Part shown: in pieces, positions 58,134 to 60,985 of the stretch
How positions within the stretch are numbered: the stretch's first letter is position 1
How the letters are laid out: each line of letters opens with the position of its first letter
Origin: Escherichia phage ECCR664
Length of the DNA stretch: 64,000 nucleotides
Reading direction: 5' to 3' (one strand)
Sequence record: OL631257.1
Made by a program: the position numbers and the translations under genes
Notes under the pieces: generated by a model
Seen by the model: only the letters and a program-made list of their open reading frames with translations
What the model was told of the DNA's origin: nothing
Databases searched by the model: none

Positions 58134-58439
58134 TTAGCACAACGCAGAAGACGAAACCCAAGCACCTTCAGTAATAACGTAACCATTACCTTCACGCTTA
58201 ACATCGCCACCATTATTTTCAATTTCATTTTTCATCCATTGGGATACGATTTCACCCTTAGGATAATAAGTACGACCGCTACCATAATCACCTACAGAAA
58301 ATGATACGGCATATTGGTCTGCGATCTTTGTTGCTTCTTCTTCGATACGTTCAGCTTGATTCAGAAGTTTATAAATTGCATCTGAAGCGGATTTGGCATC
58401 ATTAAACTCTGGTACTTTAATTTCAATAATCTTACTCAT
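58134..58439 (-). CDS. small acidic protein with GWVSSSxxC tail (paralog 1 of 3)
   Basis: 101 aa; C-terminus GAWVSSSALC; N-terminus MSKIIEI... Confidence 0.4.
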   Translation of the reverse strand: MSKIIEIKVPEFNDAKSASDAIYKLLNQAERIEEEATKIADQYAVSFSVGDYGSGRTYYPKGEIVSQWMKNEIENNGGDVKREGNGYVITEGAWVSSSALC

Positions 58440-58795
58440 TTTCTACATTCCTTAATAAAGTTTTCTATTGTTTCATTTTCACGTCTAGCTAGGAGTTCAT
58501 TATAACTAATCATTTGAGAAGCGTAAACCTTTTTATTTTTCTTGTTATGGTTTATAAAATCGTAGTAAAAATAGACTACAGTACAAAAGGATGCGATGGA
58601 TGCAAAGGCTTGGGTGTACCGTAAGTCCTGCCATTGGTCTGTGAATCCACCGGTGTTCCCTATAAATCCTAACACAACCCCGTCAATAAGAAATCCAACT
58701 AATCCAAAGGCAAATCCCATGCCAATACTCATAATAAAAATTAGAATGTTCTCACCAAGAGACGGCCATACGGTTAAGAGTTGAGGCTTTTGCAT
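58436..58795 (-). CDS. membrane protein (119 aa)
   Basis: Two TM segments; Gly-rich GFLIDGVVLGFIGNTGG. Confidence 0.4.
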   Translation of the reverse strand: MQKPQLLTVWPSLGENILIFIMSIGMGFAFGLVGFLIDGVVLGFIGNTGGFTDQWQDLRYTQAFASIASFCTVVYFYYDFINHNKKNKKVYASQMISYNELLARRENETIENFIKECRK

Positions 58796-59199
58796 CTTAT
58801 TTCCTTAACGAATTCCATAGCTTCTTCATATTCATACTTTTTAACAGCTTCGTCATACTGAGCTTGGGCTTTTGCGCACTGAACTTTCCACTCACGAACT
58901 CGAGCTCTGTGATGACGTCCTTGGTACCAATATCCCACCCAGTTAATAGGCATTAATAAAAACGGTACAATAAGTGGTGCGACGAACATTAATGAAAATG
59001 CTGCATCAGACGATATAACTTCACTAGAATCTAAAACAGCTCCTATAATCATAAAGATTAAAAATGCTAAAGCCAAAATAGGGCCAAATAGTACTTCGTT
59101 TGGGATTAATTTACGTTTGTATTCGTATGCCCAGGGCTTACTCGGCATGTATAGGGTTGGCTTTGACATATTCTCTACATTCCATAATAAATTGCTCAA
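58774..59199 (-). CDS. membrane protein (141 aa)
   Basis: Two TM segments then basic/coiled C-terminus. Confidence 0.4.
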   Translation of the reverse strand: MSNLLWNVENMSKPTLYMPSKPWAYEYKRKLIPNEVLFGPILALAFLIFMIIGAVLDSSEVISSDAAFSLMFVAPLIVPFLLMPINWVGYWYQGRHHRARVREWKVQCAKAQAQYDEAVKKYEYEEAMEFVKEIRCKSLNS

Positions 59200-59322
59200 G
59201 GATTAAATTGTTAGTGAAATTAGGACTAACAACCATAGTTTCATAAAGCGCATCAATAGCACTTAAAGCATCAACTCTTTTAAGCAAAGGCTTGCCTTCA
59301 TACATAGTTTCAGAATCGACGA

Positions 59323-59760
59323 TTAACGTAAAGTAATATTTTTATTATCGACTAGAACTTCTGTGTCAATATAAAACATATTAGACCTCAGAAGCTTATC
59401 TCTAAAACCGTAATAATCTTCTGAACGTTCACTGATATATTCCCATTCAGTGTTTAAACAACAAACAGACCACGTAGGAGCAACGAAATCAGTGAATCTA
59501 ATATCATGGTCTGCAACTAGTTTAGCAATAGCTCCGATATCATGAATCATAATACCTGGGGCTAATAAAGATTTTCTGCTATGGCTAGCCGTTTTCTCGG
59601 TGGTCTCATAAGAAGACGACCAGTACCATTTACGTCCAGTTGCAACATATCGTAATGAATCAACTAAAGACGTAGGTGGATTTACCTTATCTCGGAACTC
59701 TTCGAACATTGAGTCAATATCATTATTTTGGTTTCGCATGTTAACTCCTTTATTATCCAA
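59323..59760 (-). CDS. hypothetical protein (145 aa)
   Basis: ORF directly after a terminator. Confidence 0.3.
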   Translation of the reverse strand: MDNKGVNMRNQNNDIDSMFEEFRDKVNPPTSLVDSLRYVATGRKWYWSSSYETTEKTASHSRKSLLAPGIMIHDIGAIAKLVADHDIRFTDFVAPTWSVCCLNTEWEYISERSEDYYGFRDKLLRSNMFYIDTEVLVDNKNITLR

Positions 59761-59780
59761 AAGGAGGACCGGAGTCCTCC
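59759..59780 (-). terminator. rho-independent terminator
   Basis: Hairpin GGAGGAC-CGGA-GTCCTCC at 59763..59780 followed on the minus strand by UUUU. Confidence 0.55.
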
Positions 59781-59788
59781 GTATTATT

Positions 59789-60382
59789 TTATTTCAAAGA
59801 GTTAATATATTCTTGTACATCGGCAGAAGTGGTTTCGACACCGGCTGGAGTACCATTGAACGTTTCAACACGAGTCAGAGTGTCTTCGATATCAACCTTA
59901 GTCAGTGCAGCAATTTCAATCACATCATCAGCCGTAGAGATACCAAGGGCATTGGCTGCTCGAGTTTCACGAATGTATTCGAGTTTGATTGCCAGATTCT
60001 GACGAGCATCATCAAGTTCAACCACCTTACGAGCAATTTCAATTCGCATAGCGGCATACCCGTCAGCTTTTGTATTAAGTTGTTCGGCAGTTCGACGATA
60101 CAAAAGACCAAGCTTAGCATGCATGGTAACATCTTGTCCTTCAGCCAGGAGCTTACGAATTTCACGTTCCTTAGAAGCGGCTTGCTTATTCTTTTCAATA
60201 ACAAGTTCGCGAATACGTTTTTCTTCATTAATAGATTTAACAGAAGCCGTTTTTAGTTCTTTGATTTGGGTAATCAACTTATCTGCAGCTGCGTTATACT
60301 GTTCTTCGACAGTCAGATTTTTAGCCATAGCAGTACCCAGTTTAGTGCGGATGAATTCAACAAGTTTCTTCAGTGTGTTCAT
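59789..60382 (-). CDS. PspA/IM30-like coiled-coil protein
   Basis: ORF 59789..60397, start at ATG 60382; about 197 aa of heptad-rich sequence with the periodicity of PspA/Vipp1 proteins; by-eye only. Confidence 0.4.
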
Positions 60383-60423
60383 ATTATTACCTTTCAATTG
60401 GTGGTTTATTATCCAACGAGAGT

Positions 60424-60453
60424 ATTATACTCTGCTCTAAAGAGTTTGTACAC
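60424..60453 (-). promoter_or_regulatory. early-type promoter
   Basis: Minus strand GTGTAC - spacer - TATAAT inside the conserved block also seen at 30551..30597. Confidence 0.45.
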
Positions 60454-60701
60454 TTATTTGTACGAATTAATAATCTCTTCCATTTTATCCAGAACATGGA
60501 TATCGATTATACGAGGAAGTGCCGAAAGATTAGAACCGTCGAAAGATTTAAGGTCTTCCAAAATAATATTTTCAATGGCCTTTAAAGCTTCCGCAGATTC
60601 TGACGCAGAATTAAATTCAGGAATTTCTCCAAAAGACGTAAGAATGAACCAAAGTATTCTGCGGCGATTTCTTTAGCTTGTTCGATATCAGACTTAAACA
60701 T
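60454..60701 (-). CDS. small hypothetical protein; apparent frameshift
   Basis: Not in ORF track as one piece; ATG at 60701 with RBS GAGGAAA (MFKSDIEQAKEIAAEYF...). Confidence 0.3.
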
Positions 60702-60728
60702 TTTGTTTTCCTCATTTGTTGGTGGAGT

Positions 60729-60759
60729 AATCATATCACCATCCTTGGCGTTTGTACAT
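60729..60759 (-). promoter_or_regulatory. early-type promoter
   Basis: Minus strand ATGTAC - spacer containing CCAAGGATGG - TATGAT. Confidence 0.4.
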
Positions 60760-60985
60760 TATTTTTAATCAAGTTGACATAAAATTCTGCATCTTCAGGG
60801 TGCATGCCTTCACAGTATTCTTCAACCATGAACTTCTTAACAGCTTCATAAGGACCACTCAGATTAAGCTCAGTTGTCCAGAACTTGGAATCTTGGACCG
60901 AATCGATACGAACGTCAGGGTGACGGTTGCGAATAACTTCTTCGGTGTATTCATAATCAACGACATCAATACTAACTGTAGCCAT
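60731..60985 (-). CDS. hypothetical acidic protein (84 aa)
   Basis: ORF only. Confidence 0.3.
   Translation of the reverse strand: MATVSIDVVDYEYTEEVIRNRHPDVRIDSVQDSKFWTTELNLSGPYEAVKKFMVEEYCEGMHPEDAEFYVNLIKNNVQTPRMVI

Follow-up and report, generated by a model that had tools for sequence, protein, structure and literature searches.

The present study revealed that a window of 64,000 nucleotides from Escherichia phage ECCR664 (sequence record OL631257.1; "the window" denotes this whole stretch) carries an orthologue of the phage T4 gene e.6 (59789..60382, minus strand), and that its 197-aa product is supported as a shortened and diverged protein of the PspA/IM30/Vipp1 branch within the ESCRT-III superfamily. 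The PspA relationship of e.6 is already known from two brief annotation-level remarks in print. A 2021 genome announcement listed gp163 of Klebsiella phage Metamorpho as a homologue of T4 e.6, with an HHpred probability of 99.9% to E. coli PspA 4WHE_A (PMC7862958), and a 2022 paper described phrog_1203, represented by Gp_125 of Kuttervirus SeF3a, as homologous to PspA (PMC9409062). Both proteins belong to the same family (phrog_1203) as e.6, and both were tied to PspA through HHpred-type searches. As the homology is already in print, the value of the present analysis lies in the experimental follow-up rather than in discovery. No experimental study of e.6 function was found in the literature, and a recent review covering ESCRT-III in bacteria and archaea makes no mention of phage-encoded homologues.

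The e.6 ORF was intact on the minus strand, extending from an ATG at 60382 to a TAA at 59791..59789, and matched in position and length (about 197 aa at 59789-60382) the ORF called by the first-pass annotation, which had given no strand. An alternative TTG start upstream at 60397 would yield a product of 202 aa; the ATG at 60382 was preferred because it is preceded by a GAAAGG ribosome-binding site and because this start is common to T4. The ribosome-binding site, read from the sequence, lies 7 nt 5' of the ATG (60390..60395, minus), with its AAGG kept in T4. Directly 5' of the gene, a consensus scan located a putative T4-early-type promoter composed of GTGTACA, 17 nt, and TATAAT (60424..60452, minus; 10/12), whereas T4 has GTTTAC ... 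GTGATATTAT at this position. For the 3' side, the terminator noted earlier after the gene was recovered by scan as an intrinsic terminator at 59755..59780 (minus) with a 7-bp stem (5 G-C pairs), a 4-nt loop, and a T run. Its hairpin, GGAGGACtccgGTCCTCC, followed by TTTT, spans 59780..59763 (minus) just past the stop codon and is also annotated as a terminator in phage SA79RD, whereas T4 carries another hairpin, AGGGGCttcgGCCCCT, at the same position after e.6. With a promoter on its 5' side and a terminator on its 3' side, e.6 can therefore be transcribed alone. That e.6 is a real gene and not a chance ORF is supported by tblastn matches in 1101 phage records, by a dN/dS of 0.07 relative to T4, and by the middle class given to the T4 protein in a proteome dataset. 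From its counterpart in T4, with which it shares the positions of the promoter and terminator, it differs in nothing of substance.

The encoded protein was 88% identical to T4 e.6 (T4p129, NP_049742, UniProt P39224; 69312..69905 in NC_000866) over all 197 residues in a gapless alignment, a match that overturns the earlier remark that T4 is not known to have a PspA homologue. The order e.3, e.4, e.5, e.6 in the window is the order in T4 and SA79RD, and e.6 occupies the syntenic site between e.5 and the frd.3/e.7-e.8 region of Tevenvirinae. The window represents an RB69-like (Mosigvirus-type) T4-like phage, the e.6 region of which shared 97% DNA identity with JN02 and SA79RD, and identical e.6 proteins are present in deposited genomes. 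Moreover, the protein matched PHROG 1203 (E 1.7e-86; residues 1-197 vs 1-199 of 200), a group labelled "unknown function".

The e.6 family proved near-universal in T4-like enterobacterial phages. Searching with the e.6 protein by tblastn returned matches in 1101 of 50,697 phage records, with identities down to ~35% and with hosts including Escherichia, Klebsiella, Shigella, Aeromonas, Enterobacter, Yersinia, Citrobacter, Serratia, and Erwinia; in addition, BFVD contained family members from Ackermannviridae-type phages. When 1.84 billion representative proteins were searched exhaustively with HMMER, only 45 e.6-family representatives were recovered, all of ~200 aa, and bacterial PspA was not reached. 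On the basis of these searches, the e.6 family is small and appears to be phage-restricted. The dN/dS of e.6 relative to T4 was 0.07, indicating that the gene is under strong purifying selection. Members of the family are labelled "host specificity protein" in many deposited genomes and UniRef, and "tail completion protein" in one. These labels look like propagated annotation errors, having no support from sequence, fold, or early expression.

Evidence for homology with PspA and Vipp1 was obtained at the level of the family. When the e.6 protein alone was searched against Pfam, no PF04012 match was detected at E values up to 10, only weak chance-level matches being returned, and e.6 itself misses the PF04012 gathering threshold of 33.9 bits; a phmmer search of the protein alone against the PDB likewise found nothing. 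A profile of 23 close relatives (A1) already aligned colinearly with Vipp1 in the PDB at E ~1-2.5. It was discarded as a homology test for being too shallow, the PspA signal emerging only with a diverse family profile. The profile built from 40 diverse members (A2) matched Synechocystis Vipp1 at E 4.2e-5, with residues 1-146 colinear with 1-147, and matched other Vipp1/PspA entries of the PDB at 1e-4 to 2e-3, with Nostoc Vipp1/PspA at ~1e-3. Scanned singly against Pfam, 5 of the 40 A2 members matched PF04012, and two of them, P0063 (39.0 bits) and P0057 (35.1 bits), scored above the gathering score of 33.9. A weak NCBIfam match to LiaH was confined to one distant family member (P0063). The contigs that encode P0063 and P0057 are T4-like, with uvsX and the gene 41 helicase as neighbours of these two genes, indicating a phage origin for both rather than bacterial contamination.

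Profile-profile comparison pointed in the same direction. By hhalign, A2 matched Vipp1 alone with a probability of 90.4% (E 1.4e-6) and a small PspA/Vipp1 alignment with a probability of 92.4% and a score of 48.3 (1-162 vs 1-159), the PspA-side profile being shallow (Neff ~1.8), because the matches listed in the E. coli PspA search were all near-identical enterobacterial PspA. The control scores were 18.4 for the reversed template, a mean of 14.8 (sd 2.6, maximum 25.0) for 100 shuffles of 7-column blocks, and a maximum of 20.1 for 100 column shuffles. As the observed score lies far above the reversed and block-shuffled controls, the signal is not generic coiled-coil matching. The description of the protein as PspA/IM30-like in the first-pass annotation thus holds at the family level only (profile E 4.2e-5, hhalign 92.4%), and the profile search that it had proposed returned a PspA signal rather than a generic coiled coil. 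Global hhalign extended the alignment to 1-197 vs 1-213, with a single ~21-residue gap that falls between alpha4 and alpha5, and paired the C-terminal "...YlasLK" of e.6 with "...qLaaLK" of PspA; the C-terminal part of e.6 alone (about 50 residues) matched PspA alpha4-alpha5 at E 0.12, which is suggestive but not significant.

Structure prediction with AlphaFold2, using a 40-sequence family alignment, placed helices at residues 2-22, 25-80, 86-145, 151-160, 166-174, and 186-196 (mean pLDDT 79.6), and the ~85% of residues predicted as helical agree with the earlier view of an all-helical protein. The first of these, a predicted N-terminal cationic amphipathic helix (codons 2-22; 60317..60379, minus), would be the equivalent of alpha0 of PspA/Vipp1 according to AlphaFold2 and hhalign, and it is this predicted amphipathic helix by which e.6 resembles PspA/IM30 at its N terminus. 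The hydrophobic moment of helix 2-19 was 0.43, compared with 0.42 in E. coli PspA, and the net charge of the N-terminal helix was +3 (family mean +2.8). The next two helices (25-80 and 86-145; pLDDT ~87-97) are modelled as a long helical hairpin (codons 25-145; 59948..60310, minus), and this predicted hairpin corresponds to helices alpha1 and alpha2/3 in ESCRT-III proteins, so that the modelled structure displays the core alpha1-alpha2/3 hairpin fold of the ESCRT-III superfamily. The remainder is an acidic C-terminal region (codons 146-197; 59792..59947, minus; 3 K/R, 10 D/E), in which the helices 151-160, 166-174, and 186-196 are short and of low confidence in AlphaFold2, and which in family alignments keeps an LGI motif, Y192, and an SLK end. 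A Foldseek search of the model against the PDB returned Vipp1/PspA structures as all of the best eight matches, followed by the archaeal ESCRT-III protein CdvB2.

In comparison with known systems, e.6 and bacterial PspA/Vipp1 (PF04012) have in common the N-terminal amphipathic helix, the alpha1-alpha2/3 hairpin, and end-to-end colinearity, whereas their sequences are only ~10-20% identical. The e.6 protein is also shorter (197 aa vs 222-267 aa), with the ~21 residues between alpha4 and alpha5 absent, and its alpha0 is more cationic (+3, compared with 0 to +1 in PspA/Vipp1). In addition, its C-terminal motifs are specific to the e.6 family, and, unlike bacterial PspA, it is encoded without pspBC or pspF partners in a lytic phage, on an early phage promoter. 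ESCRT-III proper (Snf7/CHMP and archaeal CdvB) is also among the closest known systems. Among phage proteins, the "PspA/IM30 family protein" of Acinetobacter phage ME3 (229 aa; BFVD) and the pspA-like gene of Jug jumbo phages both appear to represent PspA of canonical length and not the compact e.6 type.

The genes around e.6 were examined for a possible Psp-like context. The genes e.3 (58436..58795) and e.4 (58774..59169/59199) have one and two hydrophobic segments, respectively, in keeping with the two membrane-protein genes placed beside e.6 by the first-pass annotation; they do not directly adjoin it, however, as the e.5 homologue (59138..59739, minus) lies between e.4 and e.6. No relatives of PspB, PspC, or PspF were found near e.6, and the e.3, e.4, and e.5 homologues had no Pfam matches; the linked pspB/pspC and PspF of an enterobacterial Psp system are thus not found at the e.6 locus. 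A conserved PspBC-like module of e.3-e.5 travelling with e.6 was considered and rejected on the downstream genes of distant phages. For the Serratia, Enterobacter, and Aeromonas phages and two T4-like contigs from metagenomes, the genes 3' of the e.6 homologue fell into other PHROGs or had no PHROG assignment, and BLASTP of these distant-phage genes against e.3-e.5 showed no similarity. Because the surroundings of e.6 are not maintained across distant phages, little weight can be given to the membrane-protein neighbours.

The gene itself was found at different genome positions in distant T4-like phages (L002:6001-6609, L004:6001-6612, and L006:2998-3594), with different flanking genes in each: it lies beside uvsX and gene 41 in the two metagenomic T4-like contigs, whereas in Enterobacter phage EC-F2 its neighbours are nrdD and nrdG, one on either side. 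Given these varied positions and flanks, e.6 appears to be mobile by itself, as one unit. A separate observation concerns a faint C-terminal motif (roughly hydrophobic-E-x-x-I-x-x-x-A/C-R/K) common to genes directly 3' of e.6 homologues (L005:3652-4745, L006:3624-4571, L004:6661-8123, L002:6650-7210, and L001:4839-5435). Two of these genes matched each other by BLASTP; PHROG searches did not unite them with e.5, and the motif had no profile support.

Further observations were made on the genes flanking e.6 in the window. On the 5' side, a Frd.3-family protein (PF05798, E 3e-37) is encoded at 60731..60985 (minus); T4 has e.7 and e.8 upstream of e.6, and the upstream region therefore differs between the window phage and T4. 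The e.5 homologue is divided between two ORFs, 59323..59739 and 59138..59305 (minus); the break, near 59340, is caused by the loss of 1 nt from an A run when compared with SA79RD, whose e.5 is intact (198 aa). Similarly, the small gene just 5' of e.6 (60449..60734, minus) encodes 50 aa here compared with 93 aa in SA79RD, and this shortening is caused by 1 nt missing from a T run near 60632. The occurrence of two homopolymer frameshifts within 1.5 kb suggests that the source genome was sequenced or assembled with errors here, and not that these are real pseudogenes.

Functional data are available for the T4 gene. T4 e.6 has been assigned to the early class by RNA and to the middle class by protein (PMC9697503 supplement). 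Its knock-down by CRISPRi-ART had no fitness effect ("Not Fit"; PMC11879866 supplement), and HIDEN-SEQ recorded transposon insertions at 43/43 sites, classing it as non-essential (bioRxiv 10.1101/2025.11.20.689424 supplement). With no effect of knock-down and all 43 insertion sites tolerated, any role of e.6 would therefore be conditional. The gene is still treated as hypothetical in CRISPRi-ART (PMC11879866), HIDEN-SEQ (10.1101/2025.11.20.689424), and T4 RefSeq ("conserved hypothetical").

By analogy with PspA and Vipp1, we lean slightly towards the reading that e.6 is a compact PspA relative which the phage supplies to stabilise the inner membrane and the proton motive force. Soon after infection, the protein would bind the anionic host inner membrane through helix alpha0 and then self-assemble via its hairpin, as PspA and Vipp1 do; the resulting assembly would seal or stabilise damaged membrane and so preserve the proton motive force, in line with the activity of PspA/Vipp1, and would act without PspB, PspC, or PspF partners. 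Because T4-type phages silence host transcription, the host psp operon, which is sigma54/PspF-dependent, would not be inducible, and the phage may supply the effector itself. Candidate threats to the membrane include injection punctures, superinfection, holin build-up in lysis inhibition, and membrane-depolarising abortive-infection effectors.

The last of these threats could be the one that matters. An anti-abortive-infection role, in which loss of the proton motive force is prevented, has been proposed for Gp_125, the phrog_1203 member in Kuttervirus SeF3a (PMC9409062), and e.6 might accordingly be a specialist that neutralises depolarising abortive-infection systems (Rex-like systems, pore-forming effectors). 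Such specialisation would explain why T4 e.6, non-essential in the laboratory, is dispensable on laboratory hosts, and it is consistent with early expression and with a genome position that varies among phages, as is often the case with accessory genes. However, the near-universal occurrence and strong purifying selection of e.6 fit a general role equally well. We regard so narrow a function as unlikely; it is in any case a special case of the membrane-stabiliser explanation and not a true alternative to it.

A different possibility is that e.6 is a regulatory mimic, the hairpin of which binds host PspF, the PspB/PspC sensors, or host PspA and thereby blocks or redirects the Psp response. In E. 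coli PspA, alpha0 and the hairpin form the part that contacts PspF and forms oligomers, and it is in alpha0 and the hairpin that the similarity of e.6 is best conserved; furthermore, the phage has no Psp partners of its own. Nevertheless, identity to host PspA is only ~10-15% (hhalign), which makes it unlikely that binding surfaces have been conserved; the family also extends to phages of Aeromonas, Serratia, and Erwinia and to Ackermannviridae; and a phage that has turned host transcription off would gain little from repressing a host operon. Given this identity and the wide host range, mimicry is less likely than a membrane-stabilising role, and we hold it to be quite improbable. The least probable reading, to which we give very little credence, is a generic coiled-coil or structural protein unrelated to PspA, such as a virion or host-range component of the kind suggested by some database labels: the profile score far exceeds both the reversed control and the shuffles that preserve heptads, the colinear alignment begins at residue 1 and takes in alpha0, two family members pass the PF04012 threshold, T4 e.6 is expressed early and not late, and PHROG 1203 has no functional label.

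Although T4 serves as the reference among lytic phages, its e.6 still carries the label "conserved hypothetical", and interpreting the protein as a compact PspA/ESCRT-III relative offers the testable idea that lytic phages which silence host transcription bring their own membrane-stress effector. The protein also offers a 197-residue, partner-free model of membrane binding and stabilisation by ESCRT-III-type proteins. More tentatively, and with rather less confidence, T4-type phages may carry a minimal, partner-free ESCRT-III/PspA polymer that takes an active part in protecting or remodelling the inner membrane of the infected host. If this is true, such a polymer might hold the proton motive force for correct holin triggering and lysis-inhibition timing, or might instead disarm membrane-depolarising abortive-infection effectors, and in that event the best-studied phage would harbour a new class of viral factor for counter-defence or membrane maintenance.
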